Positions 3,084 through 46,175 of a stretch of DNA of 46,458 nt are shown piece after piece. Under the pieces are notes generated by a model that worked only from the letters and a program-made list of their open reading frames with translations, was not told the DNA's origin and searched no databases. Made by a program: the position numbers and the translations under genes. Source of the DNA: Escherichia phage Phagiculus; sequence record OR896821.1. The stretch is one strand, 5' to 3'. Each line of letters starts with the position of its first letter. Position 1 is the first letter of the stretch.

Positions 3084-3110
3084 TAAAAAAACCTCCACGA
3101 GGGAGGTTTA
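3084..3110 (-). terminator. intrinsic terminator-like hairpin between chaperone GT stop and tape measure start
   Basis: minus strand ACCTCC-CTCGT-GGAGGT followed by TTTTTTT, then GGAGG RBS. Confidence 0.45.
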
Positions 3111-3434
3111 TTTCTTAACATGCTGCATCATATCCAGAGCCTTATACTCAAGTATGCGCAGGTCGTTTAAAACCATCTCTTTATCTTTGACATTATACAC
3201 ATCAAAGAGAAATGGTAGTACTGAATAATCTAATCCTGTCGCGCCGTTCATCCCGACTCGCCATTGAGTAGCGGAAGCCTGATAGATATTCCATGCGCAC
3301 ATCATGTCATCATCGAAGAATAATTCCTCTGGCCCTTCATCTTCGTAATCTGAGCGGCGCATACCAATAGCTTCAAGTTCCGCATCTGTAGGCTCCTTCT
3401 GATACTGGAGGAATACGGCGCGTTTTAGTTTTTT
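3108..3434 (-). CDS. tail assembly chaperone T-frame extension (expressed as G-T fusion by -1 frameshift)
   Basis: -1 frame open from slippery site to stop at 3108; covers the ORF-track 84-aa ORF. Confidence 0.6.
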
Positions 3435-3742
3435 GCTCGCTGACCTGCGAGTGCCTGCATATATGCGTTAGTTAACGCCAGTACCGAAGCAGGGAAAAGA
3501 GAAACTAATTCCTCGATATTTTCATCATTAAAATCTTCCTCAAGGTTCCAGTCAGAGCAGATTTCCTTAACGAAGTCGTAATCCTTCAACCCTTCAGTCT
3601 GGAAGATTTCCTGAATCTCTTTAGCTTTACGGTGCTTTGCTGTAAAGATTACCTCAGCTTCCTCGCCGTTAATCATCTGGAATTTAACAGGCAGCTTAAA
3701 ATCAGGTAAAGCGCCAAGTGTTAATTTGAATTTTGCAGCCAT
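3425..3742 (-). CDS. tail assembly chaperone (lambda gpG-like)
   Basis: 105-aa acidic protein directly upstream of tape measure; AGGAG RBS; ends in frameshift site. Confidence 0.65.
   Translation of the reverse strand: MAAKFKLTLGALPDFKLPVKFQMINGEEAEVIFTAKHRKAKEIQEIFQTEGLKDYDFVKEICSDWNLEEDFNDENIEELVSLFPASVLALTNAYMQALAGQRAKN
3428..3434 (-). other. programmed -1 ribosomal frameshift slippery heptamer A_AAA_AAC
   Basis: minus-strand AAAAAAC immediately before the G stop codon; -1 frame continues open for about 107 codons. Confidence 0.6.
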
Positions 3743-3788
3743 CTCTCGATACTCCTATTGTTTGTTTGAGGTTTCTATTGTATTCATT

Positions 3789-4490
3789 TTATTTACTGTT
3801 AGCAAGGTATAGCGCTTTAGCAAAGCCTCTTGGGGTAAGGCTTCTAATCATCTTAGTTCTTGCGCTCTTCCCGCCAAGTTTAGCCCAGCCTGGATTATCG
3901 GATGAGTTAGCATTAACCATCTTATCCTCAGGCATAACAAAGCCGTTTCCAGTCCAGAGGCAAGTTTTCTTATTGTAAGTATCCCTTCCAGGAATTATCT
4001 CAGGGAAGAACGGGTGCTTGTCATCCTCATCAAGATAGCCACCAAAATCACAAGGATGGAAAGTGTGATTTGGCCTTCTCCACATCGATGACAATACGCT
4101 AACTGGGTTCTCTATCATATATGGAGCGTTAAAGTGATTGGCTATATACTCAGCAATTCTGCAAGTTGACACCGCCTTGCGCTGAAAATCAGGGTCTTTT
4201 TCACCCTTAGATTTAAAGTGTCTTGAACCCGATACAGCAAGGTCAGTACACGGAGGGAATGCAATTATTAAATCTGGCTCACCAAAATAGCCTTTAACAG
4301 CCAGGTCCGCGAAAGATGAATCAATCCATGCATTAATGTATGTTATGTTCTCATGCTGAATCTTTGAGTTGTATTTGGCGTAGTCACCGTGGTCAGCGTC
4401 GTCATAGTTAAAACAAATCACCTTGTGACCGTTTTCTGCCCACGGCTGAGCTGCGATACCTGAACCATCAAATAAGCTGAATACTAACAT
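3789..4490 (-). CDS. DNA (cytosine-5) methyltransferase-like protein
   Basis: motif I-like LFDGSGI, motif IV-like FPPCTD with Pro-Cys, motif VI-like IENPVS; GAGGG RBS before ATG at 4490; preceded by terminator. Confidence 0.5.
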   Translation of the reverse strand: MLVFSLFDGSGIAAQPWAENGHKVICFNYDDADHGDYAKYNSKIQHENITYINAWIDSSFADLAVKGYFGEPDLIIAFPPCTDLAVSGSRHFKSKGEKDPDFQRKAVSTCRIAEYIANHFNAPYMIENPVSVLSSMWRRPNHTFHPCDFGGYLDEDDKHPFFPEIIPGRDTYNKKTCLWTGNGFVMPEDKMVNANSSDNPGWAKLGGKSARTKMIRSLTPRGFAKALYLANSK

Positions 4491-4525
4491 TATTAAACCC
4501 TCTTGTTTTCGATGGGTCCAATATA

Positions 4526-4552
4526 ACAAAAAAGACCCCTAAGGGTCTTTGC
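4526..4552 (-). terminator. intrinsic terminator after major tail protein gene
   Basis: minus strand AGACCC-TTAG-GGGTCT followed by TTTTTT. Confidence 0.6.
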
Positions 4553-4564
4553 AAAAAGTGCTAT

Positions 4565-5215
4565 TTATGCTGCCAGGAAGCTGTAGCGTCCTCGTACCGT
4601 AATTGCTACGGATACAGTTTCGATTTCGTTAACAGAAACGTTTGGCGTTTCGTTGAATGCGATAGTGCCAGTCCACAAGCGAACTTCACCAGCCTTAGGT
4701 ACGTATGCGCGAATCGCCAGAAGTGCACCAGTCTCATCGTAGTTGCGAAGGATTGGGTAAATCGGGTTGGTGAAGTCGTGCGCAAAGGTGTAAGTGGTGT
4801 TAACAGCTGACTTATAAGTCGGAATCTGCTGCTCACGGTCATCTGCCAGACACTGATAGGTAACAAACTGCTGTTCACCGCCGTCAGTAGAAACATCCTG
4901 AATACAAGGCATTTCATACCAGCTAAGAATCTTGTAGATTACCGCGGTGCCGCCAGCAGGGAACTGCATAACGTCGCTAGTGTCGATACCTTCGACGGTA
5001 ATAGTTGTTGCAGTGGTGCTAACTACTCGCAGTTGCTTCTCGGAAAGCTTAGACCAGCTTGAGGATTCAACAACGATAAAGTCACCACTTGCAAAATCAG
5101 AAGCGTCAGCAACCGTCATTACTGGTTGGGCTGCGTTGCTTACTGCGGTTACCTGAACTGATTCTCCAGCTGAACCCTGGATAAAGATTTGAGTACCGTT
5201 ACTCAAGTGTGCCAT
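4565..5215 (-). CDS. major tail (tube) protein
   Basis: position between neck/tail-completion genes and chaperones; AAGGAG RBS before ATG at 5215; flanked downstream by strong terminator. Confidence 0.55.
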   Translation of the reverse strand: MAHLSNGTQIFIQGSAGESVQVTAVSNAAQPVMTVADASDFASGDFIVVESSSWSKLSEKQLRVVSTTATTITVEGIDTSDVMQFPAGGTAVIYKILSWYEMPCIQDVSTDGGEQQFVTYQCLADDREQQIPTYKSAVNTTYTFAHDFTNPIYPILRNYDETGALLAIRAYVPKAGEVRLWTGTIAFNETPNVSVNEIETVSVAITVRGRYSFLAA

Positions 5216-5229
5216 GTAAATCTCCTTAA

Positions 5230-5628
5230 TTAATCCATACGTACGTAGAATCGGATTGGGAAGAACCAACCAGACTGTGATTTAACCGCTGGGTGTACCA
5301 CCCCCCCTTCATATATATATCCGGTGCTTAGCATTGTACCATCGGCGAAAGCTTCTGACAATGACCCCGCTAATTGGCGAGCCCTATCAATTCCAAAACC
5401 TGGAGGGAAGAACAAAGAGACCTGAACCATACCAATATAGTATCTGCAAGTTCTCTGAAGACCCCATGTAACGGTATCAGCTTCAGTGTAATCAAACTTT
5501 AGCCACATCGAGCCATTCTTTGGCGGTGTAAAGTTGCAGTTTTCGTAAGAAACTGGCAGCGAGCCAGTAATATCAACAGCAACCCTGCTTACCAATTCGC
5601 GCGCAGCGATAGACATTTCATAGTGCAT
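5230..5628 (-). CDS. tail terminator / tail completion-like protein
   Basis: GGAAGG RBS; position in neck-tail block; start overlaps stop of upstream gene. Confidence 0.35.
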   Translation of the reverse strand: MHYEMSIAARELVSRVAVDITGSLPVSYENCNFTPPKNGSMWLKFDYTEADTVTWGLQRTCRYYIGMVQVSLFFPPGFGIDRARQLAGSLSEAFADGTMLSTGYIYEGGVVHPAVKSQSGWFFPIRFYVRMD

Positions 5629-6046
5629 TGCCGACCTTCCTTATTGCGTCGTTGAAATAGAATCCAAGCCTTTTACTTACAATTCCAAGTATCCCGTTAG
5701 GAGCCTGACCGGAGTAACCAAACTCTAGCGGAACAGAGTAGGTTAATGCATTGGTTATGTAAATTGTACTTGTAGCCCTGTCTCTTGCTAGCGCGTGAAT
5801 CTGTCGCCTGAGAGAATTTATGGTGTCAGCCCCATCCTTATCATAGTTGTTCAGGCTGATAAGTGATGGATTATTTCCGGTGGCTTGCCAGTTACCCTTG
5901 AATCTACCTGTATCAACAGGTGAGAGATTAACAATATCTCTTGCTGCGTTATTTAGGGCTTCATCGATAATCTCAGGTAGTGCCTCGGAAACCGAGTCAA
6001 TCCAGTCATCTATCTTTAACTTAAATAGAAGGTTTTCATTAGCCAT
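5618..6046 (-). CDS. HK97 gp10-like neck/tail-completion protein
   Basis: SPVDTGRFKGNW motif typical of the HK97 gp10 family; position. Confidence 0.45.
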   Translation of the reverse strand: MANENLLFKLKIDDWIDSVSEALPEIIDEALNNAARDIVNLSPVDTGRFKGNWQATGNNPSLISLNNYDKDGADTINSLRRQIHALARDRATSTIYITNALTYSVPLEFGYSGQAPNGILGIVSKRLGFYFNDAIRKVGNAL

Positions 6047-6446
6047 AAGTCGCAGCCCTCCGCAATACTGGTCGATATGCGATTACGGTTCCTGTTGGCT
6101 TAACTGGTCGAGGGTCAACTACCGTGTATGCTTCCTGGTCGACGTAGATGCGGTCACCTTCCGATATAACCGAATCAGCAGTAAAAATTCCACGACGGTC
6201 ACCGAAGATAATGATGTCACCATCAATGTCTCTTGCTTTGAACTCACGAATAACCCCCTTAACAGTATAAGAGCGGCCTGGAGACAAAACCTCACGTCCC
6301 GCCACAATCTGAACTGATGGAGCAGTTGTCGCCTCGAAAACACCATCACCATCTGACAGGAGGTTAATTCCTGTCTTTATCTGCTGTTGCAGAAGTCGAT
6401 GATCCATTAGCAGCACCCTCGCGATTTGCCCATAATAAGACCCCAA
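6039..6446 (-). CDS. head-tail joining (head closure-like) protein
   Basis: position between connector and gp10-like genes; overlapping gene boundaries. Confidence 0.35.
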   Translation of the reverse strand: MGSYYGQIARVLLMDHRLLQQQIKTGINLLSDGDGVFEATTAPSVQIVAGREVLSPGRSYTVKGVIREFKARDIDGDIIIFGDRRGIFTADSVISEGDRIYVDQEAYTVVDPRPVKPTGTVIAYRPVLRRAATYG

Positions 6447-6805
6447 CCGCCAAGTTTCTTGCGATAAAGCGCAAGATATAACTTGCCCCAGCTAGAACTA
6501 GATAAATCAGAAGAACTTTTAGTAGCAGTCGATGTGTCATATGTGATTGTGTACTCTCCAGAAAGTGAGTAGGACTTAACCCGATCAGATGATGTCTGGC
6601 TTGAGTCGTTCTGAGTCTTAAGTGCAATATCCTGACTAACCAGGTGTAACGTGTAGAATGCCAGAGCCTGAACCTTTTTGTCACCGAATCGCTCAAAGCA
6701 AACAAATAGCTTAGAAACTTCAACCCACGCGTTAAGAACTTCATCAGGCTGGCTTACTAAAGGTGGGTATAGCGTTCTCATGTATACAATTACTTCTTCG
6801 TTCAT
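6407..6805 (-). CDS. head-tail connector/adaptor-like protein
   Basis: position downstream of major capsid gene; GGAGG RBS. Confidence 0.35.
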   Translation of the reverse strand: MNEEVIVYMRTLYPPLVSQPDEVLNAWVEVSKLFVCFERFGDKKVQALAFYTLHLVSQDIALKTQNDSSQTSSDRVKSYSLSGEYTITYDTSTATKSSSDLSSSSWGKLYLALYRKKLGGWGLIMGKSRGCC

Positions 6806-6906
6806 CTTGTTCTACCTCCAGATAAATATCCAATTAACAATATTGCGCCAATTAAAGTTAATGGAGCAAAAAGAATCAATGTCATGACAAGAAAGAAAAT
6901 CAACAT
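6802..6906 (-). CDS. small hydrophobic peptide (34 aa, MLIFFLVMTLILFAPLTLIGAILLIGYLSGGRTR), not in ORF track
   Basis: GGAGG RBS 4 nt before ATG at 6906; stop TGA overlaps ATG of the next gene (ATGA coupling); single predicted TM helix. Confidence 0.4.
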   Translation of the reverse strand: MLIFFLVMTLILFAPLTLIGAILLIGYLSGGRTR

Positions 6907-6916
6907 GAAACCTCCA

Positions 6917-6945
6917 ATAAAAAAGGACGCCGAAGCGCCCATGTT
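6917..6945 (-). terminator. terminator-like hairpin with UUCG loop
   Basis: minus strand GGGCGC-TTCG-GCGTCC followed by TTTTTTATT. Confidence 0.45.
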
Positions 6946-6947
6946 TA

Positions 6948-7193
6948 TTATTTGTACTCGTTGCCAGTCTCGGCTTCAGAGATGGTCTTAGGCTCTTTTC
7001 GTTTGCGCTTGCTGGAAATCTCTTCTGCAATCTTTTTAGATTCTTTAGGGTCATCAGCAATTGTTATGCGACCCTCTGCGATAAGCTGCTTAATGCCAGC
7101 GCTAAGAACCTCAGTCTCAATAAAATCACCTGGAACGTAACCCTTACCATCAATCATGATAAAGCAAGCACCAGTATGTTCTAAACGAATCAT
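6948..7193 (-). CDS. hypothetical protein (81 aa, K/E-rich C-terminus)
   Basis: AAGGAG RBS before ATG at 7193. Confidence 0.4.
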   Translation of the reverse strand: MIRLEHTGACFIMIDGKGYVPGDFIETEVLSAGIKQLIAEGRITIADDPKESKKIAEEISSKRKRKEPKTISEAETGNEYK

Positions 7194-7255
7194 TTCAATC
7201 TCCTTTGTTATCTGTTAGTGGTGATTATAACTCATCGTTTTGGTTTCGTACAGAC

Positions 7256-7278
7256 GTAAAAAAGCCCTCCTAAGAGGG
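7256..7278 (-). terminator. intrinsic terminator after major capsid gene
   Basis: minus strand GCCCTC-TTAG-GAGGGC followed by TTTTTT; shares 22-nt element with 15635..15656. Confidence 0.6.
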
Positions 7279-7285
7279 CGATTTA

Positions 7286-8233
7286 TTAAGGGTAGGTAAT
7301 ACCCTTCAGTACAGATACGGTCAGCGGACGGTAGATAACCAGACCAGTAGACTTAGAAGTAACCGGATATTTAAAATGAAGGTCCTTAGGCTGACCCGGC
7401 AGCACATTGGTCGCTTCCGGAATCTCAATGCTGAGGTTCAGCGGATCTTTTTCAAACGCCAGTGCTGCTTTACCGCCCGCGCCATCGTAGTTATCCAGGA
7501 ACTGAAGGTAACGGATGGTAAGGCCAGGGTTGTTACGAGTAAACAGTTCACCATAACTAATGGTAGTACCAGCAACCAGGCCCTGCATTACTCGACGAGC
7601 GGATGCCGGAAGAATGATGTCAGTTACATGGTGAATGCCCTGGGTTGCAATTTCAACAGAATCAATCATTGAAGTAATATCATCAACCGCGTTCTTGGCA
7701 TCAGTCCAGCCACTTGCATTAGCAGTAATCTGGTTGACGTTAGGCGCGTTGAATACGCTGGTAATGCCATGAGGCGTAGAGCCTTGCCAAACCAGTTTAT
7801 CAAGCAGGTTGTCGTGAGCTTCAAATGCCAGCGCCTGTTTGCGAGATTGCAGAGGCTGACCAGTTGCAGCGCCAGCTTTGATTTCATCAACGGACACCAG
7901 GAAGGCGTTACCGAATCGGAAAACTTTGCCCTGCTTCTCAGTCATGAAAGCATCAACCAGCGGCAGGTCATCAGAGTAATCAGCGATAATCTGAGCGATA
8001 CCTACGCCATCGAATTCCGGGTATTCAAAGTATTTTGCGTGGCTTGGGATTTCGTTACTTACAGGGAAGATATTAACAACGGAGTTATCCGGGTATTCTT
8101 TCTCGTAGTTACGCTTGAGGGTTTCGGTAAGCTGCTTGACGGTCCAGATACCAGCCGCATCAGCCTTTTCGACGCCCATTTGCTCGAGGTGAGCCGTGAT
8201 TTTAGCCTGTTCGGCGTCTAACTTAATAGCCAT
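7286..8233 (-). CDS. major capsid protein
   Basis: 315 aa, position after scaffold/decoration genes, own sigma70-like promoter and strong terminator. Confidence 0.65.
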   Translation of the reverse strand: MAIKLDAEQAKITAHLEQMGVEKADAAGIWTVKQLTETLKRNYEKEYPDNSVVNIFPVSNEIPSHAKYFEYPEFDGVGIAQIIADYSDDLPLVDAFMTEKQGKVFRFGNAFLVSVDEIKAGAATGQPLQSRKQALAFEAHDNLLDKLVWQGSTPHGITSVFNAPNVNQITANASGWTDAKNAVDDITSMIDSVEIATQGIHHVTDIILPASARRVMQGLVAGTTISYGELFTRNNPGLTIRYLQFLDNYDGAGGKAALAFEKDPLNLSIEIPEATNVLPGQPKDLHFKYPVTSKSTGLVIYRPLTVSVLKGITYP

Positions 8234-8268
8234 TTTATCATCCTTTTAGTTAACAAGTTTACGAGTTC

Positions 8269-8296
8269 ATTATACACGAGTTTTAAGCCCGCGCAA
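8269..8296 (-). promoter_or_regulatory. sigma70-like promoter upstream of major capsid gene
   Basis: minus strand TTGCGC - 16 nt - TATAAT, 29 nt leader with AAGGA RBS. Confidence 0.4.
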
Positions 8297-8311
8297 TGGC
8301 GGGCATTAATC

Positions 8312-9853
8312 TTATGGCAGCTTGAATGTCTCAATCCTAATTGCGATGTTAAAACTAGTATCAGCTGGGCGCTGAAGGTGAAAAACATCAATCATTATAA
8401 TGTTTTTATCTCCCCAATCTCTAGCTGAGAATTGAATTCTTTTATATCCCCCACCAGTATAACCCGCAGGATCACCTACAACATACCTGCTAGTTCCTGC
8501 AATTGTGTGGTTTGACTGATATCTCTTAACTACGTCAGCGGATGGAAAGTTTACAACCTCAACATCAAAATACCTTCCTGCAATTGAGTTGCCTACAAAA
8601 GAGTACTCAATGTTATTCCCAACCCTTCTTACTGAAAAAGAGATGCCAGGGTTGTTTGGTATAGCTATAGCTGAGTAGCTTGTCGATACGGTAAGTTGAG
8701 TTGTATAAACTGGATTGTTTGTATTATTTTGACCTGCTGGACCCTGTGGGCCGGTTGCGCCAGTTTCGCCTTTTTCTCCTTTGTCGCCCTTTTCGCCCCT
8801 CTCTCCCTGTGGTCCTTGTGGCCCCACCGCTCCAGCAACGCCTCTAATGCCTTGCGGCCCTTGAATACCCTGAGGTCCAGTATCACCTTTTGGCCCTTGA
8901 GGACCGGCTGGTCCAGTAATACCCTGCAATCCTTGATCACCTTTTGGCCCCTGTTCACCTGGTAAACCTTGAATACCTTGCTGGCCCTGAACCCCTCTTG
9001 GACCCTGCTGTCCTGTTTCTCCTTTTTCACCTTGAGGGCCGATATCACCAGGGTCGCCTTTTTCACCCTTATCACCCTTCGTCCCCTGAGCGGCAAGAAC
9101 AACCCACAGAGGTGATACTCCAGGTTCCTCATCTTCTGCAATGTTGCTAACTGCGAAGTAGGTTGAGCCACCGTAAACTACGGTATCATCTTTTGCATAA
9201 CCAGTATCAGGAACCCATTGCCCACGGAATGTTAAACCAGCAGGCCCGACTTCGCCAGGATCACCTTTCTCACCAGTATCACCTTTTAATCCTTGCGGAC
9301 CTTGTGGGCCGATATCACCCCTATCTCCCTTGTCGCCTTTCAAGCCTGCTGGGCCTTGAATTCCCTGTGGACCTTGAATACCTTGAGGGCCAATTGGTCC
9401 TTGTGGACCTACCGCACCACGCTCACCTTTTTCCCCATCAGCGCCATCGTCACCCTTTGGACCCTGCGGACCCTCTGGTCCAACTTCCCCTCGTGGACCT
9501 TGAGGACCTTGCGGACCAGCCATTCCATCCCTGCCAGATGTTCCCTGAAACCCTTTAGTTAACGCAACTGCAAACTGATTTGACTCGGATGAAGGTTCGC
9601 CAAAAACCTCCCAACCTTCGTGAGTGATTTCGTTTACTCTATCAATTAGCTTTTGGCGACTGGTTGCACTCAGAACCATGAAGTCGGTAATATCTGCGTT
9701 AGTTCCCTTAGCTACAACCATGCCAATAGTGTTAGAGCCAGTGCCTGTTAATACTCTATCAAATGGCTGCCAACCTTCTGCAATTGCCTCTAGCACCTTG
9801 CGGCTAAGTGATGCCGTGTTACCAGCAAGGATTTGCCTAAATTCTAAAGCCAT
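8312..9853 (-). CDS. collagen-like repeat protein with embedded CBM5/12 (ChtBD3)-like segment
   Basis: two long Gly-X-Y runs (GPQGPQGPRGEVGPEGPQGPKGDDG... and GDKGEKGDPGDIGPQGEKG...) separated by WVPDTGYAKDDTVVYGGSTYFAV...PLW; non-collagen N- and C-terminal domains. Confidence 0.8.
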   Translation of the reverse strand: MALEFRQILAGNTASLSRKVLEAIAEGWQPFDRVLTGTGSNTIGMVVAKGTNADITDFMVLSATSRQKLIDRVNEITHEGWEVFGEPSSESNQFAVALTKGFQGTSGRDGMAGPQGPQGPRGEVGPEGPQGPKGDDGADGEKGERGAVGPQGPIGPQGIQGPQGIQGPAGLKGDKGDRGDIGPQGPQGLKGDTGEKGDPGEVGPAGLTFRGQWVPDTGYAKDDTVVYGGSTYFAVSNIAEDEEPGVSPLWVVLAAQGTKGDKGEKGDPGDIGPQGEKGETGQQGPRGVQGQQGIQGLPGEQGPKGDQGLQGITGPAGPQGPKGDTGPQGIQGPQGIRGVAGAVGPQGPQGERGEKGDKGEKGETGATGPQGPAGQNNTNNPVYTTQLTVSTSYSAIAIPNNPGISFSVRRVGNNIEYSFVGNSIAGRYFDVEVVNFPSADVVKRYQSNHTIAGTSRYVVGDPAGYTGGGYKRIQFSARDWGDKNIIMIDVFHLQRPADTSFNIAIRIETFKLP

Positions 9854-9908
9854 TTCATTTACTCCGTATTGGTTAATAGTACTAATGATTGTATCAGATT
9901 ATAGGCAA

Positions 9909-9929
9909 TAAAAAACCTCCCGAAGGAGG
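9909..9929 (-). terminator. intrinsic terminator between 177-aa gene and collagen-like gene
   Basis: minus strand CCTCC-TTCG-GGAGG followed by TTTTTT. Confidence 0.6.
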
Positions 9930-9936
9930 CTTTAAT

Positions 9937-10470
9937 TTAAAGAACCTTTACGCACAGTGTCTTGCCTGAAATGGTTTCACTCCTCAGTTTGCCAACTACA
10001 ACTGACGCCCTCATCTTTGTCCAGTCATCTGGAATCTTGTAGTAATCATAATATTTCTGGAGAGTGTAATCGTAACCCGTCCCAGAGAAAACAAGGTCAT
10101 CTGATGTGAAGTCATCCGATACAGATAAGTTTGAGATTATAACCTCGCCATCTTCAAGATGTTGATCAAGGATGTTCATGTATGACTCGGCGTACTGGTT
10201 TTCAAGCTGGGATCTGTCAATATTAACCGATAGGAGCCTAAATCTATCATAATTTAAAACTGATTTGCGGTTTGATAGAGTTACACTAGCCACCGACACC
10301 GACTCGGTAATAGCCTTAGTTCTTGCGTTAAATGATAATCCGTGATTAATTGAAAAGTTAGAATTTGATGAAGCGTCAGCTGTCGATGTATATCCTGATG
10401 CTGATAATTCATGAAAGAAAGAATTCATCTCACCAACACTAGAGAATGATACCGATATTTTCTTATACAA
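9937..10470 (-). CDS. hypothetical protein (177 aa), TTG start
   Basis: AAGGAG RBS 7 nt before TTG at 10470; bracketed by terminators. Confidence 0.5.
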   Translation of the reverse strand: MYKKISVSFSSVGEMNSFFHELSASGYTSTADASSNSNFSINHGLSFNARTKAITESVSVASVTLSNRKSVLNYDRFRLLSVNIDRSQLENQYAESYMNILDQHLEDGEVIISNLSVSDDFTSDDLVFSGTGYDYTLQKYYDYYKIPDDWTKMRASVVVGKLRSETISGKTLCVKVL

Positions 10471-10482
10471 TTTTATCTCCTT

Positions 10483-10506
10483 AAAACAAAAAGGCCCCGA
10501 AGGGCC
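10483..10506 (-). terminator. intrinsic terminator after decoration-like gene
   Basis: minus strand GGCCC-TTCG-GGGCC followed by TTTTTGTTTT. Confidence 0.55.
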
Positions 10507-10512
10507 AGTTAA

Positions 10513-11040
10513 TTAAGCAGTAGCTAATGCTGAATCTGCGGATTGAATCAGCTGAACTTCAACGATTGCACCATCGTAGCTTTCGCCTTGTTTAATTGGG
10601 TCGCTACCGTTGTTAGCATAAGCCGAAGCATAGCCACCAGCAAATGTAAAACCAGTTTCCCAAGTAGTGTCTGCCGCTTTAGCAACAACAACACCACTTG
10701 CGTTAACGAAAACCTTGCTACCAAAATCTGGTGCACTTGCTAGAGTAGTACGAACCCAGATACGACCATGAGTCATTACGTTAACCGCTTCATTTACGCG
10801 AGCAGTTCCGTCTGGAGTCTCGTAGTGGGATTTAACAACAACACCATAAGGTTTAACTGGTGTGCCAGTAACGACTGGAAGACCAACAACCTTGTGACCA
10901 TCTACAGGCTGAGCTGAGGTAACGCCAACAAAAGTGCCAACTGGAATTGCAGCAGTACCACCAACCACACAAGCACCATCAATATTATACAGGGAAGTAT
11001 CAGCTACCATGCCTGCCAGAGCTACGGAACGAATTGCCAT
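10513..11040 (-). CDS. head decoration/cement-like protein
   Basis: 175 aa Gly/Val/Ala-rich protein after scaffold gene; AAGGAG RBS. Confidence 0.4.
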   Translation of the reverse strand: MAIRSVALAGMVADTSLYNIDGACVVGGTAAIPVGTFVGVTSAQPVDGHKVVGLPVVTGTPVKPYGVVVKSHYETPDGTARVNEAVNVMTHGRIWVRTTLASAPDFGSKVFVNASGVVVAKAADTTWETGFTFAGGYASAYANNGSDPIKQGESYDGAIVEVQLIQSADSALATA

Positions 11041-11050
11041 TTAGGACTCC

Positions 11051-12154
11051 TTATTTTTTCAATTTAGCGAGGCGAGCTCGCGGGTCTAATTTCTTAGGCG
11101 CGTCGGCTGCATCGGATTTGTCAACGCCATCTACTTTAGCGCGTACTTCAGCCATTTTATCAGACTCTTTGGCGATATCAAAGGCTGCATCGATGTATGC
11201 ATCAGATTTCTCAGACACATTCAGGCCGGAAACCTCTTTAACGTAAGCAACTTTAATTTGCTTAGCGTCGAGTCCGTCACACTTAATGCCAACTTCGGTA
11301 GCTTTAGCAACCAGGTCAGCCATTACGGCGGAATCAGCTTTAAACTTCTCAATGGCTGCTTCGATTTCTTTATCCATGCCATCAACTTTAGCTTTCAGCA
11401 TATCCCGCTCTGCGGTGATGCCTTCAATCTTTTCTTTTGTATCTTTGGCATCTGCTTTGATAGCTTCGATGTGTGCCGCAACTTCTGGGGCGATTTCAAA
11501 CTCCTGTGCGCCATCCAGTTTAATTTTAACCATTTCTGAATCCTCTTTAGTTAATTGAACGTCATCATTATATGGGTTTTCTTGCTCACCGTCCAGATTA
11601 AGTTTGGCGACACCTGCGCGACCTTTATGGACTAGCGCGATATGATTCACTAAGATGTTAGTCTGAAGCGCGTCAAAGCGGACCCAATCAGAAGGGATTT
11701 CTTCCTGACTGGCATAATCACCATCCAGTTTATACTCTCCAGTCTCATTACTACCCCAGCCGCCAGTATTAACATCAACCGTGCTGTAACCTACTGACAA
11801 TTCGCCAGCATCTCCAGATTTAGCCTTTTCGATAGCCTCCTTGTCGTAAATTGTCAAAGGAACTACCACGTTAGAATCCTGACGCTGACCAACACCATTT
11901 ACAGAACCAACCACAGTCTCCTTTGCGTTGTCAGGGCTCACAAACACGTGACCTAAGGTTAGCGGCTTGCCCATATACGATTCCAGTGAATCGCTTTTAA
12001 AGACCTCTGAAGCAGGGCGAAATTCACGACGAACTCCACCATCTGCTGTTGCGTACTCCTGCACTCCGACACGCGCAACTACGGGCGTGTCGACCAGGAA
12101 TCCGTTTTCATCGAAGCGGGCCTTAACCCGCGCTGTATCGAAACGAATTGCCAT
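11051..12154 (-). CDS. capsid scaffolding protein (DUF2213-like N-terminus plus K/E/A/D-rich coiled-coil C-terminus)
   Basis: composition and position between portal and capsid genes. Confidence 0.5.
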   Translation of the reverse strand: MAIRFDTARVKARFDENGFLVDTPVVARVGVQEYATADGGVRREFRPASEVFKSDSLESYMGKPLTLGHVFVSPDNAKETVVGSVNGVGQRQDSNVVVPLTIYDKEAIEKAKSGDAGELSVGYSTVDVNTGGWGSNETGEYKLDGDYASQEEIPSDWVRFDALQTNILVNHIALVHKGRAGVAKLNLDGEQENPYNDDVQLTKEDSEMVKIKLDGAQEFEIAPEVAAHIEAIKADAKDTKEKIEGITAERDMLKAKVDGMDKEIEAAIEKFKADSAVMADLVAKATEVGIKCDGLDAKQIKVAYVKEVSGLNVSEKSDAYIDAAFDIAKESDKMAEVRAKVDGVDKSDAADAPKKLDPRARLAKLKK

Positions 12155-12192
12155 TAATTAACCCTCACCATAACCAGTGTAATTGATAAGCA

Positions 12193-13464: not shown

Positions 13465-13514
13465 GTGTTTCTCCAATAAAAAAGCCCCCATATAGAAGGC
13501 TAGTTTAGCACGGT

Positions 13515-15083: not shown

Positions 15084-15595
15084 AGCTTATCCATAATTGA
15101 TTCAAGTGCGGCCTTCATAACTTCTTCATCGTTAACAACAGCACTAGATGCGTTGTTGATGTTAACTTCTTGAGGCTTGTCGATACCTAAGTCTTTACCA
15201 ATCAGACTAGAGTTAACGATGTTATTCACACCCAGCTGATACTTCTGCTCAAAGATGACTGAATCTACAAACTCCATAACTTCAGAGAAGCCAGGGGATG
15301 AGCGCCAGTGGCTAATGGCATTTCCCGTAACCCCGCAAAATAATTGGAATCCGTTAATGGTGAAAACTCGCGGCTTATGAATAAGGTTCTCAGTAACAAT
15401 CCCCTGATGAGATGCAGTTTCAATAGCCTTAATTGCCTGGCTCTCTGCCCAAGTGAAATACCTTACCGCCATATCAAACAATTGCTCTGGCGTGAACTTG
15501 TGGTTAATCTTCAGGTTAGCAATATCTCCGTACTTCTTGTTGTAAAGCTCCTTGAAGTTACCAATCTTCTGGTGAATCTTCTTCTCTTCTTGCAT
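15080..15595 (-). CDS. terminase small subunit (putative)
   Basis: 171-aa ORF translationally coupled to terL; AAGGAGG RBS before ATG at 15595. Confidence 0.45.
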   Translation of the reverse strand: MQEEKKIHQKIGNFKELYNKKYGDIANLKINHKFTPEQLFDMAVRYFTWAESQAIKAIETASHQGIVTENLIHKPRVFTINGFQLFCGVTGNAISHWRSSPGFSEVMEFVDSVIFEQKYQLGVNNIVNSSLIGKDLGIDKPQEVNINNASSAVVNDEEVMKAALESIMDKL

Positions 15596-15643
15596 GCGAT
15601 ATTCCTCCTTTGTTGAAGGCCATTGTACCACAGCTACAGACGT

Positions 15644-15665
15644 AAAAAAGCCCTCCGAAGAGGGC
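15644..15665 (-). terminator. intrinsic terminator upstream of terS
   Basis: minus strand GCCCTC-TTCG-GAGGGC followed by TTTTTT. Confidence 0.6.
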
Positions 15666-15688
15666 GAAAGGTACAACAACGAGAGAGA

Positions 15689-15871: not shown

Positions 15872-15889
15872 GATGAGTATCCTTGAGTT

Positions 15890-35921: not shown

Positions 35922-35964
35922 ACTATACACCATCGATTTAATCCTGTTTTAGCTATTCGTGCTA
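35922..35964 (-). promoter_or_regulatory. conserved promoter module
   Basis: tagctattcgtgcta (one mismatch); minus-strand TATAGT at 35927..35922; leader CCTAATCGACAAAAAAGAGAGA. Confidence 0.5.
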
Positions 35965-35966
35965 TA

Positions 35967-38651: not shown

Positions 38652-38693
38652 ATATACCCGTTCAGAAGCATCCTGTTTTGACTAATCGTGCTA
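38652..38693 (-). promoter_or_regulatory. degenerate conserved promoter module
   Basis: tgactaatcgtgcta (half-site degenerate); aaacag; GTATAT; leader contains hairpin CTGCTCA-AATC-TGAGCAG. Confidence 0.35.
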
Positions 38694-38869
38694 TTTTGTA
38701 TACCAGCGTAAAACTATCCAATTTACAGATTCCCCCACCTGCAACACCGCCATCACTTGATGTAACCGATGTATATAGAGTAAACAAGAAAAAATCACCC
38801 ACATCTATATCTATAGATAAATGCAGGTATGTATATGCTCGTAAAAATGAAGATTATACGCCCATCGCC

Positions 38870-39272
38870 TCATGAGCCCGCACCAACACTGGATGTAACT
38901 CATGTAAACGCTGTAACAGTAGTTTTTGCGCCCCTATCTATATATCCATATGCATTTGGCAACACCAGAAACAGAACTTAGTCATTTCAAAAAAACATAT
39001 CAACACAACCATAGAAGGTAGTTACACTATATACAAACAAATATAGTAATAATAATAATTACTCTAAACCCTTATTATATAAGGATTCTTTAGTGTAACT
39101 AATGCGTATCTGCGCGTAAAAAGCGTATACAATTTCCCGCGGGTCAGGATTGCATACATCGATTTACATAGGTTACGCGTATATCAAATAGCACGATTTG
39201 CTAAAGACTGACTGAAGCACCTTTGGTATAGTTACTCCATCGAAACGAAAAACACTTAATAAGGATTCAAAA
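38870..39272. repeat. AT-rich control region B, paralogous to 18670..19260
   Basis: same ordered sequence blocks as region A, ending in conserved promoter module. Confidence 0.6.
39189..39232 (+). promoter_or_regulatory. conserved promoter module
   Basis: tagcacgatttgcta, aagact, TATAGT at 39227..39232; leader TACTCCATCGAAACGAA identical to the one at 19222..19250. Confidence 0.6.
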
Positions 39273-40601: not shown

Positions 40602-40648
40602 AATTTACTCCTATTAAAAAAGGCAAATCCATTTGCCAATTATATCAA

Positions 40649-43600
40649 TTAGAAAGTACCAGTCAAACGACCAATCTGTACGCGAAGCCTTCCGTTTGCA
40701 TCAGCAACTGAAATGGTCTGGTTTGTCTGCTTCATCCTGCCTTCTCCAGCCGTAAATCCGTTGTTTTCGAAAGTTCCAGCTTTATCAAGCCTCCATCCAG
40801 TATTGTTTGCGACAAAGTTGTTAGACTGAATCGCGTTGCCAATCTTAGCGTTAGTGATTGAACCGTCCTGAATCACCGCGCTTTGGATGAATACCTGGTT
40901 GTTCTCGACAACGAAAGGCAGCGACCACTGACCGGAACCCTGGCTAATGCCGTTACTGATTGCAAATCTGTTAGCATCAAAGATGAACTGACTTCTAACA
41001 TTACCACCAGATCCAACAAGCTCCATACTCATGCCCGCGCCGTACTCCATTCCCTGATACTTAAGGCCAAGCTTAACACCATACTGAACACCAACACCTT
41101 CAGCCGTCGCGTAAGTATCTAGCTTCTCATTAAGAGCGGCTTCATTTTCCCCAAGCCTTGCGCTTAATGCCGTGTCAGCTGTAGCCCTTGCTTCAGTCTC
41201 TGTTGCCAGCGCTGTTTCGATGGTTGTAATCTGTCCTACAATCTCATCATCTATCTGCGCTTTAAGCTGCGTAAGGGCCTCTACACGAGCCTGTGTTTCA
41301 TCAGCTATCAGATTTACAGCCTGTCGATATTCCGCCTTCCTTGCGCCGTTTTCGCGTGTCATAATCCGAACATCAATATCGTTTGCCAGAGCGTTCTCAA
41401 TGATTGCCTCGGCCTGGTTTTGAATATCAGTGTTTGAATTAATGGCATTCTGAAGAAGGTATTTGTAACCATCAGAATCTTCAATATCAACCTTGATTTC
41501 ACCAATGATTGCAGTTACATCATCAGAAGCCATGCCTCTAACAAACTCAGTCCATTGAGAAACGTTGCCGATTCTGTCAATGGCCCTAGCCCTGTACCAT
41601 CTTACGTTGCCTGCCGGAAGAGTAGTGTGCCAGTACTCATACTGAGGGTATGGAACAAGGCTCAGTAATGAAGCATTCTCGGGAGAATAAGTACCGTCAC
41701 CATTATCAGGAACTTGCTGCAACTCAACATATGCAGTATCCGCACTGTTCTCGCCAAAGCCCCACTTAACTCTGATGCCAAATACCTCATCATCTGAAGC
41801 GGTTATTACAGCTAACGGTTCAGGCTCGCCAATCTTTCCAGTCAGAGAAACGGTTACGATTTCAGACCATGCGGAAACTGATTTCTGGTCAGTAACAGCT
41901 CGCACCCTAACGTCATAGATGCCAGCGTAGATGCCCTCAATATCAACCTCGGTGTTGGCAGTCTCCGGTACGTTAATCCAGTTACCGTTATTCTTACGCC
42001 ACTGCACGTTGTATGTTTTTGCATACTGCACTTTGTCGTAACCAATAACCATCGTTTCAACGCTTAATCCCTGAACAACCTTACTGTAGCTTGATACTCT
42101 TAGGTTCTCTGGTGGCAAGATTCTGTCAGGGTCAACGATACTTGTTGGTCTGTCATCGATGTTCACACCGTAGTCAATCTCATCGTACTTGTTCGGGTCA
42201 TACTGCACGGCGGTAATGTTGTATTGGAATGAATCATCTCCGTCAGTATTTGCTTTTTGAATCCCTGTCACCACATATTGCTGCAAAGCCAGATTCTGCT
42301 TATCAATTGCGAATACTGTGTCAGGCTGCGGATTGAAGCTAAACGCGGTGTTAAGTTCAATCGTTAACTTATCCTGAGATACAGAGGCAATAGTGCGGTA
42401 CTCTGGGCTTCCGTCCGGCTTGTTAATCAGAATCCTGTCGCCAGGTTCAGCATCAATCGCGAATGGAACGAAAACTTGCAAACCAGAAGCCTCAACGATA
42501 CGACCGGAAAGGTTTAGCGTGTAGTTGCTTGACCAAGCCTGGTCATTAACAGCAATAACATCACCAACCATTGGAATCATGCCTTCAAGACCAGTGGTGA
42601 AGCTGATTGTTTCGCTTCTCAGGTTCGTCTTCAGCAACCAGCGACCCCTACGGTTCGCTTCACTCCTTCGCGTACAGCCAATGGCAGAAAGGTCAACTGG
42701 ATTAAATCCAAATCTGCGCGTAGCCTCGAGCTCGAATACTGGCTCAATATCTTGCTGGTAGTTGTTCTGCTCATCATCAAACTGGACGTTAGCGGTAGTG
42801 TACAGGCTCTTGTCGCTTGAGAATGTGCGGCTAAACAATCCATCCACAACGTTATCGTTTGTGAATACGTAGCTCGGCTGACGCGGTTTATCAACAACAA
42901 TACCAATCTTCTCGCCATCATAAAAAGTAAGACCACGGAAGATTGAGCAAATATCACGAATAAGCTGATATGCCTCTACCTTCTGTTGGATAACTACGTC
43001 GCACAAGTAGCGAGGCTCCAAACCACCCTTACCGTCAGGAACCATCTGGTCACAGAATTGTGCGGCTTCATACAGCCCCCACTTATCAATCTCAACACCA
43101 AGCTCGCGCTGGTCAAGGCCGTATCGCTGACTAACCACCAGGTCATAAAGAACCCATGCCGGGTTATTTGACCACGCCATCTTGAAAGTTCCATCCCAAG
43201 TGCCGCTATACTGCCGCGTCTCTGGGTTGTAGTTTGTTGGAACTCTAATCAACTTCCATTTCTTCTTAATGGCGATAGTCGGGATGCCATTTGGGAATAG
43301 GTCAGAGCTAAACTCAACATAAACTAAAGCGGTTAGTGGATACCGGAATTTTGCATCAATTACTTCCTGGTAGGTTGTAATCTGCATACCGTTAACTAGT
43401 GTGCTACTCGTTGAGTCGGGAGTTATCTTACGAATGCGGACAAGAGCACTACTAAACTCGGCTGGTAAATTGACACGGATAGAGCGGTCATAACCCGTTG
43501 TAGTCTTACCGTTAGCCACGCCTCTAGTATATTGGGTGTACGCTCCGCCATTAACAGATAAATCAATTGCATACTCACACGTTGTGCCATTTAAATCTCC

Positions 43601-44053: not shown

Positions 44054-44077
44054 AATAAAAAACCCGCACTAGGCGGG
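44054..44077 (-). terminator. terminator-like hairpin between I and J genes
   Basis: minus strand ACCCGC-CTAGT-GCGGGT followed by TTTTTTATTT. Confidence 0.5.
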
Positions 44078-44084
44078 TTGTGAT

Positions 44085-44651
44085 TTAACTAATATCTTCA
44101 CTATAACTTCCTGCGCTAAACACTGAGCCGCCAACAGTCCTGTATCCATATGGCAGGCAAACCGGATAACCAGCTGCGACCGTGTTTACTGCGGATCCGA
44201 ATGCGTATGAAGCCCTGTTGCTTGTCTGCGATGCCTGTTGGTTAAGACCTGTGGCCTGCGGAGCTAAAAGCTGAGCCACCCCACCAGCCAGTAAACCCAC
44301 AGCAACCGGCAGAAGTACAGGGAAAAAGTAAGAGGCAACAAGAAGCACACCTCCGAGGATGGTCTGGAATAAACCGCCAGACTTACGACCTTGCGGCACA
44401 GGTATGATGCGAAGTTCATTAACCGCCTTGAAGTCCTTAACCTGGTGCTCGCTCAGGTTCTTTCCGTCTGCAAATACTGCAAATCTGGTATTCTGTCCAA
44501 CGTGGCTGCCCATAAACTCCTTAAATCCAGGAACCACAACGCACATTGCACGAATAGCTTCGTCAACAGAGTTAACAGCCAGCTCATGCATCTTTCCAAA
44601 TTTACGCCCAAGAGATAGGCCTAACTTAATCTTAATCTTTTTCTGGATCAT
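44085..44651 (-). CDS. tail assembly protein I-like
   Basis: position after K; hydrophobic Gly/Ala/Leu-rich C-terminal half. Confidence 0.6.
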   Translation of the reverse strand: MIQKKIKIKLGLSLGRKFGKMHELAVNSVDEAIRAMCVVVPGFKEFMGSHVGQNTRFAVFADGKNLSEHQVKDFKAVNELRIIPVPQGRKSGGLFQTILGGVLLVASYFFPVLLPVAVGLLAGGVAQLLAPQATGLNQQASQTSNRASYAFGSAVNTVAAGYPVCLPYGYRTVGGSVFSAGSYSEDIS

Positions 44652-45369
44652 AACTAACCTCCAATGGTAAATCTTTATGGCGAACCACTCTGACAGTCCG
44701 CTCACGATAGTAATCTCCGTACAAATCAACCTTGCTCATTCTTCCGTAAAGGTGATGAAGGAACTTGTTATCACCTAGGTAAATCCCTGCGTGATTAGTT
44801 TTCTCGCTCTGAATCTGCATCATAATCATTGCGCCAGGCACTAACTCTGATTCTACGAAGCCCTCTTTAACCCAGTTTTCATCGTAAATGTTATCTGGGT
44901 ATTGGTTCTCCCACCACGGATAATCGACCCGGTAGTCGCTCAGCCTAACTCCATAATTGCCGTGGTAAGCCATAATGAGAGACCAGCAATCGAAACTACC
45001 AAGACCCCACGGTCTACCAGCAAGTGGCATTCTTTCCGGCTGAATAACTCGTAAGTCACCTTCAGGGACACTAACAATAATGTAAGGCAACTCGCACTCA
45101 TTACAGCTACATATGTCGGCAGCGCTGGGTCTAGTCGTAGCGCCATCACCAGTGTGAGAATGGACGACATAAACAATATTGCTTTCATCTGAAATCTCCA
45201 TGTATTCTTTAGCGTCTAAGATGAATGATTGCTCTGGTGTTTTTGAGCGATTGGTAATTCGGTGATACTTCTGAGACTTTCCCGTCTGAGTCACGACACC
45301 GCAGCACTCTTGAGGATAAACTTCATTGGCGTGTCGGAATATGTCGATTTTTACGTTTGGATTAATCAT
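44632..45369 (-). CDS. tail assembly protein K-like (JAB/MPN plus NlpC/P60)
   Basis: JAMM-like VHSHTGDGATTRPSAAD and Cys/His NlpC/P60-like C-terminus. Confidence 0.8.
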   Translation of the reverse strand: MINPNVKIDIFRHANEVYPQECCGVVTQTGKSQKYHRITNRSKTPEQSFILDAKEYMEISDESNIVYVVHSHTGDGATTRPSAADICSCNECELPYIIVSVPEGDLRVIQPERMPLAGRPWGLGSFDCWSLIMAYHGNYGVRLSDYRVDYPWWENQYPDNIYDENWVKEGFVESELVPGAMIMMQIQSEKTNHAGIYLGDNKFLHHLYGRMSKVDLYGDYYRERTVRVVRHKDLPLEVSYDPEKD

Positions 45370-45378
45370 TTGCTCACC

Positions 45379-46134
45379 TTAGTTCTGATTGTTTTTAGCC
45401 TGCAGGCTTGCCGCCGCACACCCGCCGAAATCCAACTGATTGTTTGCTCCAAATCTAAGCTTACAGGCCGTAACTGTTCCGGCACAGAAGTCTTGAGATG
45501 GGTCAGCTACAGGGTTGTTATCTTTGTCGAAGTATCTGTTACCCATGTATCCGCATCCGTTACCGCTTCGATACCAGCCGCGTTGAGACCAGTAGCATAC
45601 TGACTGGGTTAGTCGCGCCGGAATGTAAATACCATCCATATCCATTGGGCTAGTTAACTCAAAGGATGCCGTCTTGTAGTCTACATGCTTAGGTCGCTCA
45701 ATGAAGTAAACCAGCTTTCGGTAATCCCCATCAGCGATGGTCCCATCTTCATTAATGTTCTCTCTCATCGTAATCCAGATTGTTACTTTAGCCTGAACCA
45801 GCCCGTTATAGGTTCGGATTAATGCCGAGATGTTCTGATCAACGTTTGATACCACCAATGTCACCTTGTTTGCTTTACCATCAGATGTCATGTTGATACC
45901 CTGGATACCGAAAGGTCGCGGGCCGTACTCTTCACCACGGAAGATAATATTCTTAACCGGAAGCGGTGTGCCATTCATCTGTGCTTCCATGATTTCTTCC
46001 GGCGTGTAGCTAATGTTCTCACCGTGGAACCTGTAAGTCCTGGCGCCAAACTTACTACCATCAACTTCAATAAGTGTCACAACCTCACCAGGGAATAGTG
46101 ACTGCAACTGATTTTCAAACTTTACACTAGCCAT
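45379..46134 (-). CDS. minor tail protein L-like
   Basis: 251 aa with C-terminal conserved Cys cluster; position between M and K. Confidence 0.75.
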   Translation of the reverse strand: MASVKFENQLQSLFPGEVVTLIEVDGSKFGARTYRFHGENISYTPEEIMEAQMNGTPLPVKNIIFRGEEYGPRPFGIQGINMTSDGKANKVTLVVSNVDQNISALIRTYNGLVQAKVTIWITMRENINEDGTIADGDYRKLVYFIERPKHVDYKTASFELTSPMDMDGIYIPARLTQSVCYWSQRGWYRSGNGCGYMGNRYFDKDNNPVADPSQDFCAGTVTACKLRFGANNQLDFGGCAAASLQAKNNQN

Positions 46135-46150
46135 ATAAACCTCAATAAAA

Positions 46151-46175
46151 AAGCCCCTCGTAGGGGCTTAGTATA
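46151..46175 (-). terminator. terminator-like hairpin between M and L genes
   Basis: minus strand AAGCCCC-TACG-AGGGGCTT followed by TTTTTTATT, then GAGG RBS. Confidence 0.5.

Follow-up and report, generated by a model that had tools for sequence, protein, structure and literature searches.

Conserved terminator hairpins and promoter-like elements punctuate the late genes of Escherichia phage Phagiculus

Late-gene hairpins and their precedents

The genome record of phage T1, NC_005833, is said to have come from Roberts, Martin, and Kropinski in 2004. Its annotated terminators lie ahead of terS, at terL/portal, downstream of gp49, the major head gene, gp46, and the major tail gene, at the gp39/tape measure, M/L, and I/J junctions, and downstream of J and gp31. 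ARNold terminators annotated in the record of phage MM01 (MK373793) occupy these junctions too, with energies of -11 to -15 kcal/mol. Two genome papers list 21 intergenic terminators in phage TLS (PMC11447400) and 18 to 21 per genome in four Rogue1-like phages (PMC4070988). We analyzed the hairpins between the late genes of Escherichia phage Phagiculus (OR896821.1), taking the whole record of 46,458 nucleotides as the window. Hairpin punctuation in Phagiculus is an already described trait of the T1 family in a new family member, and its novelty is low. To our knowledge, the regulation of the T1 late genes was never worked out.

Phagiculus resembles T1 and MM01 in family, in gene order, and in carrying terminators at the same junctions, including those after a cement-like gene and at the operon end. 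The hairpin sequences differ from those of T1, however, and are weaker (-8.5 to -12 versus -10 to -17 kcal/mol in T1), extra units surround the inserted g177, the collagen-like g513, and a methyltransferase gene, and the position of the promoter relative to the hairpin varies between lineages at M/L and after the capsid gene. As for a T1-type architecture, terminators stand at the T1-annotated junctions, and candidate RpoD-type promoters within modules take the form of conserved -10 or extended -10 motifs at fixed offsets, but promoter-like sites show no genome-wide excess and three units are without such a motif.

In lambda, one late promoter and the Q protein serve the late operon by processive antitermination. 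Phagiculus shares with lambda a long co-oriented head and tail block (G/GT, H, M, L, K, I, J) that runs across terminators and host RNA polymerase as the enzyme, but it has no detected Q- or N-family protein and does have conserved internal promoter-like elements. Internal partial terminators are known from the Escherichia coli rplL-rpoB attenuator and from f1/M13, where a terminator follows the major coat gene VIII and nested promoters lie upstream. By general knowledge of these systems, the likeness lies in a leaky or unit-ending terminator after a highly expressed gene, several promoters, and graded mRNA levels; the difference is that one or two sites are present there and about a dozen within 22 kb in Phagiculus, several overlapping putative promoters. 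Finally, Xp10 p7 and P23-45 gp39 are reported to be phage antiterminators that bind RNA polymerase (PMC4513864, PMC3351154). The likeness here is that of siphoviruses whose late genes are read across intrinsic terminators by the host RNA polymerase, but no p7 or gp39 homologue or family match was found in the window, and an equivalent factor is conjecture.

Megablast of positions 3000-16500 matched solely T1-like siphoviruses (e4/1c, Sd1, Rogue1, phiKP26, JK06, and MM01), the top match having 53% coverage at ~81% identity and no record reaching at least 80% coverage. The annotated relatives belong to the subfamily Rogunavirinae of the Drexlerviridae, and orthologues from terS through J follow the T1 order; judged by these similarities, the window is a Rogunavirinae-type T1-like phage of this family. 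The structural genes lie on the minus strand, beginning with terS, terL, portal, protease, cement, a 177-amino-acid orphan, a collagen-like gene of 513 amino acids, major capsid, and an 81-amino-acid gene and continuing with connector genes, major tail, an inserted DNA methyltransferase, the G/GT chaperones, and tape measure. Because gene M straddles both window ends and the block resumes from 46458 to ~39.6 kb with L, K, I, J, and two further genes, the window is a circularly permuted whole genome. The late block thus runs from ~15.7 kb to 1 and then from 46458 to ~39.6 kb, with early and middle genes at 16.2-39.6 kb. An earlier sequence-only reading had placed a late operon at 3084-46175; the block exists, but the range is misleading, since it really comprises two stretches of one minus-strand block.

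That reading had also noted nine hairpins with T-runs between late genes. All nine are present on the minus strand, with stem free energies of -8.5 to -12.0 kcal/mol, every one stronger than the value of about -8 kcal/mol above which the idea was to be abandoned. The loops, described as GNRA or UUCG type, are UUCG in 4 of the 9 and GNRA in 0 of the 9 on the transcribed strand. Beyond these nine, we found sites at terL/portal (13501-13483), after J (40637-40622, weak), at the operon end (39626-39609), and at 16144-16115, as well as two intergenic GC hairpins without a T-run (8304-8287 and 95-82). In block order, with the site upstream of the tRNA first, the hairpins are as follows.

16144-16115, to 16105 (-): 12-base-pair hairpin with an interrupted T-run, upstream of tRNA-Arg; -16.4 kcal/mol
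15665-15650, T6 to 15644 (-): terminator before terS, GCCCTCTTCGGAGGGC with UUCG loop, plus T6; -9.9 kcal/mol
13501-13483, tail to 13477 (-): terL/portal terminator, AGCCTTCTATATGGGGGCT plus T5ATT; -8.8 kcal/mol; annotated in T1 and MM01
10506-10493, tail to 10483 (-): terminator after the cement/decoration gene g175, GGCCCTTCGGGGCC plus T5GT4; -8.7 kcal/mol
9932-9913 (-): terminator after the orphan g177, AAGCCTCCTTCGGGAGGTTT plus T-run; -10.0 kcal/mol
8304-8287 (-): GC hairpin without T-run ahead of the capsid gene; annotated as a terminator in the MM01 record
7279-7264, T6 to 7258 (-): terminator after the major capsid gene, GCCCTCTTAGGAGGGC plus T6; -9.9 kcal/mol; annotated in T1 and MM01
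6940-6925, T6 to 6919 (-): terminator after the 81-amino-acid gene, GGGCGCTTCGGCGTCC plus T6; -8.5 kcal/mol
4550-4531 (-): terminator after the major tail gene, AAAGACCCTTAGGGGTCTTT plus T-run; -10.0 kcal/mol
3109-3089, to 3082 (-): GT (g84)/tape measure terminator, AAACCTCCCTCGTGGAGGTTT plus T-run; -9.7 kcal/mol
95-82 (-): tape measure/M hairpin without T-run, GGGGCTTCGGCCCC; identical in Rogunavirinae relatives, absent from T1-type loci
46169-46151, T6 to 46145 (-): M/L terminator, AAGCCCCTACGAGGGGCTT plus T6; -12.0 kcal/mol
44079-44061 (-): I/J terminator, AACCCGCCTAGTGCGGGTT plus T-run; -10.1 kcal/mol
40637-40622, T6 to 40616 (-): weak hairpin after J, GGCAAATGGATTTGCC plus T6, then the Shine-Dalgarno (SD) sequence of g101
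39626-39609, to 39601 (-): terminator at the late-operon end, AAGCCCCTTTCGGGGCTT plus T-run; equivalent annotated in T1

An equivalent of the site before terS is likewise annotated in T1 and MM01. The terL/portal T-run adjoins the portal SD sequence and ATG at 13464, the terminator after g175 (a match to Phage_cement, PF22758) adjoins the g177 SD sequence, and the one after the 81-amino-acid gene adjoins the next SD sequence, with promoter-like elements on neither side. The hairpin ahead of the tape measure gene overlaps the preceding stop codon, and its T-run adjoins the SD sequence and ATG at 3073. The hairpin after J is unstable when folded in its sequence context, and the operon-end terminator is convergent with a plus-strand lipoprotein gene. 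An internal G-U wobble in the hairpin of the 81-amino-acid gene (GGGCGC/GCGTCC; 6925-6940, minus strand) is kept across many relatives and may tune this terminator toward leakiness.

Under a strict definition (stem of at least 5 base pairs, at least 4 GC pairs, T-rich tail), the whole window holds 28 sites on both strands, compared with 3.9±2.1 (maximum, 10) in 60 dinucleotide shuffles; this excess and the position-specific conservation described below rule out chance occurrence. In the late region, 12 of 13 strict late-strand sites are intergenic, although intergenic sequence makes up ~4% of the region by our own sum of the gaps. These 13 sites have stems of 5 to 12 base pairs with at least 4 GC pairs and free energies of about -8.5 to -16.4 kcal/mol. 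At least 5 T within the 8 nucleotides past the stem were found at 13 of the 15 late hairpins, the exceptions being 8304-8287 and 95-82. The sites thus have the features of intrinsic (Rho-independent) terminators, namely, a GC-rich stem-loop, a 3' U-tract, and a co-oriented position downstream of a stop codon, with junction medians of -2 to 28 nucleotides from stop codon to hairpin across relatives.

Two of the terminators share an identical 22-nucleotide element, as the earlier reading had pointed out: GGAGGGCTTTTTTACGTCTGTA occurs exactly at 15656-15635 and 7270-7249 (minus strand), with 0 copies expected by chance. The copy at 7270-7249 consists of the hairpin 3' arm, T6, and ACGTCTGTA, and in relatives a T-run followed by (a)CGyCyGTA(TAAT) comes after several terminators. 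The repeat looks like a cassette common in the family, made up of hairpin 3' arm, T-run, and (a)CGyCTGTA. A role as a -35 element at fixed spacing was ruled out, as the next -10 lies 22 nucleotides past one hairpin and 34 past the other, a 12-nucleotide difference.

Conservation of the junctions and their promoter-like elements

We compared the late junctions across 84 loci, consisting of 80 capsid-anchored loci from IMG/VR together with T1, Rogue1, MM01, and Sd1. Orthologues of each late protein were located, and a canonical sense-strand terminator was sought no more than 90 nucleotides from the stop codon, with the following outcome.

After capsid: terminator in 81/84 loci, 30 distinct hairpins
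After major tail: terminator in 78/78 loci, 30 distinct hairpins
After g84, before tape measure: terminator in 78/78 loci, 17 distinct hairpins
After M: terminator in 71/75 loci, 23 distinct hairpins
After I: terminator in 64/66 loci, 24 distinct hairpins
After cement (g175): terminator in 42/46 loci, 23 distinct hairpins
After the 81-amino-acid gene: terminator in 34/35 loci, 15 distinct hairpins
After terL: terminator in 32/79 loci, 19 distinct hairpins
After g132b: terminator in 1/81 loci

No sense-strand terminator was found after protease (0/83), G (0/79), tape measure (0/70), or L (0/71). T-runs favor the sense strand over the antisense strand after major tail (78 versus 21), at I/J (64 versus 20), and after g81 (34 versus 11). 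This bias, present at most junctions, argues against a DNA-level function or purely bidirectional terminators; a few sites are bidirectional (3109/3089, 34767/34748, 23243/23224, and 31045/31023). At the GT/tape measure site, 4 of 7 stem pairs show compensatory changes, as do 5 of 7 in a second alignment, although covariation from alignments is only partly informative because stems of unequal length misalign. Conservation by junction, combined with turnover of the hairpin sequence and compensatory changes, therefore indicates selection on structure at specific junctions.

The junctions after terL, capsid, and M contain extra genes in several relatives (L002, L004, L005, L007, L015, L001, and L023 in our set), including HNH endonucleases and small genes driven by the DR element described below. 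Since junctions with terminators hold inserted genes in relatives, they appear, from these gene arrangements, to be insertion hot spots.

The sequence-only reading overlooked internal promoter-like elements, which accompany the hairpins in three geometries: a promoter-like element past the hairpin, a promoter-like element adjoining the hairpin, or a terminator alone. The elements in the window are listed here in block order.

15622-15630 (-): extended -10-like TGgTACAAT, 22 nucleotides past the pre-terS hairpin; candidate terS-terL promoter
13502-13510 (-): extended -10-like TGcTAAACT, ending 0 nucleotides before the terL/portal hairpin
11154-11181 (-): intragenic TTGATA-16-TG-TAAAAT, ~141 nucleotides upstream of the cement gene
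9903-9898 (-): TATAAT past the g177 terminator
8296-8269 (-): TTGCGC-16-(TG)TATAAT ahead of the capsid gene, the -35-like TTGCGC lying inside the 8304-8287 hairpin
7224-7229 (-): TATAAT, 34 nucleotides past the capsid terminator; candidate promoter of the 81-amino-acid gene; gTTATAATcac is kept in Rogunavirinae relatives
5333-5361 (-): intragenic TTGTCA-17-TG-TACAAT, ~143 nucleotides upstream of the major tail gene
4520-4564 (-): putative DR-type promoter, ATAGCACTTTTTGCAAAGA ... TATATT, with the major-tail terminator 4550-4531 inside its spacer; precedes the methyltransferase and G/GT genes
within 46145-46197 (-): TTCACG-16-TGaTATACT, the -10 ending 0 nucleotides before the M/L hairpin
44048-44043 (-): -10-like TAGAAT, 12 nucleotides past the I/J hairpin
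within 40616-40666 (-): near-consensus TTGACT-16-TGaTATAAT at the end of J, adjoining the weak hairpin

Where the element lies past the hairpin, its position is conserved. A -10-like hexamer is found 10 to 12 nucleotides past the I/J hairpin in 37/37 distinct junctions (23% in shuffles), 8 to 12 nucleotides past the hairpin after major tail in 38/51 (32% in shuffles), and 20 to 22 nucleotides past the hairpin before terS in 12/14 distinct relatives (25% in shuffles). This spacing puts the -35 position in the hairpin loop and 3' arm, where many relatives have TTGCGC or TTGCAC. The arrangement TTGCGC-16-(TG)TATAAT also precedes the capsid gene in an Rtp-type locus.

The second geometry is exemplified by terL/portal, where a -10 (at least 5/6 match) ends 0 to 4 nucleotides before the GC core in 20/27 distinct relatives, against 8% by chance, and the remaining 7/27 have TGnTAAACT. 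In the window, an extended -10 ends 0 to 1 nucleotides before 3 of the 15 late hairpins (terL/portal, M/L, and after J), given a per-position frequency of 0.0015 (P = 4e-5). Because an extended -10 so placed would start transcription inside the 5' arm, such transcripts are predicted to be unable to form the terminator.

The terminator stands alone before the tape measure gene, where the gap is at most 24 nucleotides in 79/79 loci and neither flank has promoter-like motifs above background, and after the 81-amino-acid gene, where the gap is at most 24 nucleotides in 35/35 and -10-like elements are at or below background. The same geometry is seen after the cement gene in this window, with the T-run adjoining the next SD sequence and no promoter-like motif on either side.

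Other elements lie within upstream genes, ahead of the cement and major tail genes, and match at 10/12 positions or more, with TG. The cement-gene site keeps its offset in 15 Rogunavirinae-type loci with a variable -35 (TTGATA or TCGACA). The major-tail site keeps its offset across Rogunavirinae-type loci, again with a variable -35, and other lineages have a different site ~60 nucleotides upstream. Ahead of the major tail gene, 50/79 loci have a site with a match of at least 10/12, in contrast to four control genes with 0. In the Rogue1 record, a promoter is marked at the position of the DR-type element after major tail, which is predicted to drive the inserted methyltransferase gene and the G/GT chaperone genes.

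Transcription of the late block and competing explanations

The explanation that we consider probable combines leaky terminators with internal host-type promoters, giving nested transcripts that favor abundant virion proteins. The hairpins, whose positions are kept across the Drexlerviridae, would be true intrinsic terminators for host RNA polymerase and would cut the structural region into short overlapping units, the "transcriptons" of T1, with leaky 3'-end formers acting jointly with weak host-type promoters. The cement gene g175, the major capsid gene, the 81-amino-acid gene, the major tail gene, and the G chaperone unit (ending at G/GT) each have a promoter-like element upstream and a terminator downstream. 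Bracketed in this way, the abundant proteins would be made from plentiful short mRNAs with a protective 3' hairpin. Genes behind promoter-less terminators (the connector genes, tape measure and M, and the orphan g177) would be expressed solely through read-through polymerases. Our data show that the hairpins are there, how strong they are, how they are oriented, and that they and the promoter-like motifs are conserved by position; termination efficiencies, promoter activity, and the link to protein stoichiometry are what we infer from this anatomy.

Read-through had been proposed earlier on the grounds that downstream genes are essential. This argument stands at the promoter-less junctions (before tape measure, after the 81-amino-acid gene, and after the cement gene here) but not elsewhere, where promoter-like elements are nearby. 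The same proposal had offered attenuators setting stoichiometry or RNA stability elements on the one hand and antitermination on the other; the first half fits the anatomy because conserved promoter-like elements accompany the hairpins, whereas antitermination found no positive support.

Hairpin strength is in keeping with leaky internal sites: the internal late hairpins are weaker than other unit-end terminators in the window (mean, -9.8 versus -12.7 kcal/mol; P = 0.002), and across relatives promoter-less junctions are slightly weaker than promoter-followed ones (median, -11.7 versus -12.8; P = 0.016), which in related sequences is weak evidence.

Several points count against combined leaky termination and internal initiation. 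The strength comparisons draw on related sequences and small samples. The portal protein is essential, yet T1-type relatives have a strong terminator (-13 to -17 kcal/mol) before its gene. A generic promoter scan of the window gave no excess of sigma-70-like sites over shuffles, and support for the promoters consists of positional conservation, part of it within coding sequence. The products of the connector genes, tape measure and M, and g177 are low-copy or accessory by general knowledge of siphovirus virions, which is not data for Phagiculus. A literature search found no transcript data for any T1-like phage, the one Drexlerviridae RNA-seq paper being on a T5-like phage.

One competing explanation, which we regard as unlikely, is processive antitermination, in which an unrecognized phage factor or RNA element lets late RNA polymerase pass the hairpins and the terminators mainly silence late genes early in infection. 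It would account for the promoter-less junctions that stand directly ahead of essential genes throughout the family (tape measure, 79/79; after the 81-amino-acid gene, 35/35) and for the strong terminators ahead of the portal gene in some relatives, and the many small early proteins that match only families of unknown function could conceal one that binds RNA polymerase in the manner of Xp10 p7 or P23-45 gp39. However, Q, N, and other antiterminator families were not found among 38 proteins scanned with Pfam and PHROGs, the conserved internal promoter-like elements at most junctions would be superfluous for a single antiterminated transcript, and hairpins are also spread through the early and middle region. 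An Rfam scan at the gathering threshold returned only the tRNA-Arg and no known antitermination RNA, with Rfam coverage of all such elements unchecked, and antitermination goes unmentioned in those published genome papers on T1, TLS, and Rogue1-like phages that could be read. It is accordingly improbable, though conceivable, that T1-like phages encode an unrecognized early factor making E. coli RNA polymerase resist intrinsic terminators late in infection; such a factor would be needed at the family-wide promoter-less junctions ahead of the tape measure, connector, and tail genes. In a milder version, a transcription start inside the terminator 5' arm may generally insulate adjacent units, an arrangement undescribed so far.

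A mainly post-transcriptional role is similarly doubtful. The hairpins would then block 3' exonucleases or act in processing and stability, so that each segment of a long transcript has its own half-life, with little true termination. The two conserved intergenic GC hairpins without a T-run (95-82 and 8304-8287) fit such a role, the former possibly being an mRNA stability or processing element, and so do the high stability of UUCG tetraloops and the placement of hairpins directly 3' of the most abundant genes. Yet the sense T-run on 13 of the 15 late hairpins would be needless in a pure stability element, and the sense-strand bias of T-runs is strong at several junctions. The role is, moreover, compatible with leaky termination, as a terminated 3' hairpin stabilizes the upstream mRNA too.

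Regulated attenuation, in which an alternative RNA fold, or a ribosome finishing beside the hairpin, switches termination, is very improbable even though stop codons lie 0 to 14 nucleotides from the hairpins and one overlaps the pre-tape-measure hairpin. Folded in 120-nucleotide context, the terminator stems prevail (pairing probability of 0.86 to 1.0 at 11 of 13 sites), so competing folds were not found there and attenuation of the leader or riboswitch type was rejected as unlikely. Ribosomes enter g84 solely through a -1 frameshift at A_AAA_AAC, so that it is rarely translated and a ribosome cannot routinely mask the pre-tape-measure hairpin; this also weakens ribosome masking as a general route to read-through.

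For annotation, the hairpins are to be treated as conserved regulatory sites that mark unit boundaries rather than as noise. These boundaries are also where accessory genes have been inserted in relatives, such as the methyltransferase, the orphan g177, the collagen-like protein, and HNH endonucleases. The comparative map sorts the junctions into three classes (promoter past the hairpin, promoter adjoining the hairpin, and no promoter) and thereby makes specific, testable predictions. In the engineering of T1-like therapeutic phages, terminator junctions would offer natural, insulated places for inserting payload genes.

Neighboring genes and the DR element

Several genes of the late block stand out beside the junctions. 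The 177-amino-acid open reading frame (ORF) g177 (9937-10470, minus strand) has terminators at both ends; it had 0 Pfam or PHROG matches and 0 tblastn matches in the 84 related loci and is a putative orphan, moron-like insertion into the head module. Another head-module gene, placed between those for cement and capsid (8312-9853, minus strand), encodes the 513-amino-acid protein with collagen triple-helix repeats (PF01391). This protein shares 98% identity with one from MM01, is labeled "tail fiber" in relatives, and is missing from most of them. The DNA methyltransferase gene (3789-4490, minus strand) sits between the major tail and G chaperone genes, matches phrog_757 (E = 4e-88) without a Pfam match, and has 0 orthologues in the 84 loci.

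A hydrophobic ORF of ~31 codons (6812-6905, minus strand), below the 60-amino-acid minimum of the ORF list, starts directly past the terminator of the 81-amino-acid gene and is also present in the Rtp-type locus mentioned above (L007). The G-like chaperone gene (Phage_TAC_4; 3425-3742, minus strand) has the slippery heptamer A_AAA_AAC shortly before its stop, in the 3434-3425 region. From this heptamer (3434-3428, minus strand), the -1 frame enters the 84-amino-acid DUF1799 ORF g84 (3108-3362), and the two are, by this arrangement, a predicted classic G/GT programmed frameshift pair. Immediately upstream of the terS unit is a tRNA-Arg with anticodon CCU (15890-15965, minus strand), which is overlapped by a 76-amino-acid ORF (15689-15919) whose PHROG family match is limited to the final ~52 codons.

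The "DR" element of TLS and T1, ATAGCACnnnTTGCTAAAG, is present in 13 copies in the window, compared with 2.2 expected.

Minus strand, DR copies: 4546-4564, 17115-17133, 18047-18065, 25046-25064, 25490-25508, 28058-28076, 30442-30460, 35947-35965, 38676-38694
Plus strand, DR copies: 19178-19196, 19676-19694, 20766-20784, 39188-39206

Downstream of every copy, at a fixed distance, comes a -10-like TATAgT or TATATT, then the conserved leader CATCGAAACGA, and then an SD sequence and ATG. The copies are predicted to be a family of phage promoters, most of them among the early and middle genes. Encoded at 30477-31016 (plus strand), divergently from the helicase gene, is a homologue of gp23, the "transcriptional regulator" of T1 (phrog_2856, without a Pfam match); it has an apparent helix-turn-helix and is a candidate for binding the DR promoter element. 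At three copies, a GC hairpin lies inside the DR promoter spacer (4550-4531, 20789-20806, and 25487-25466).

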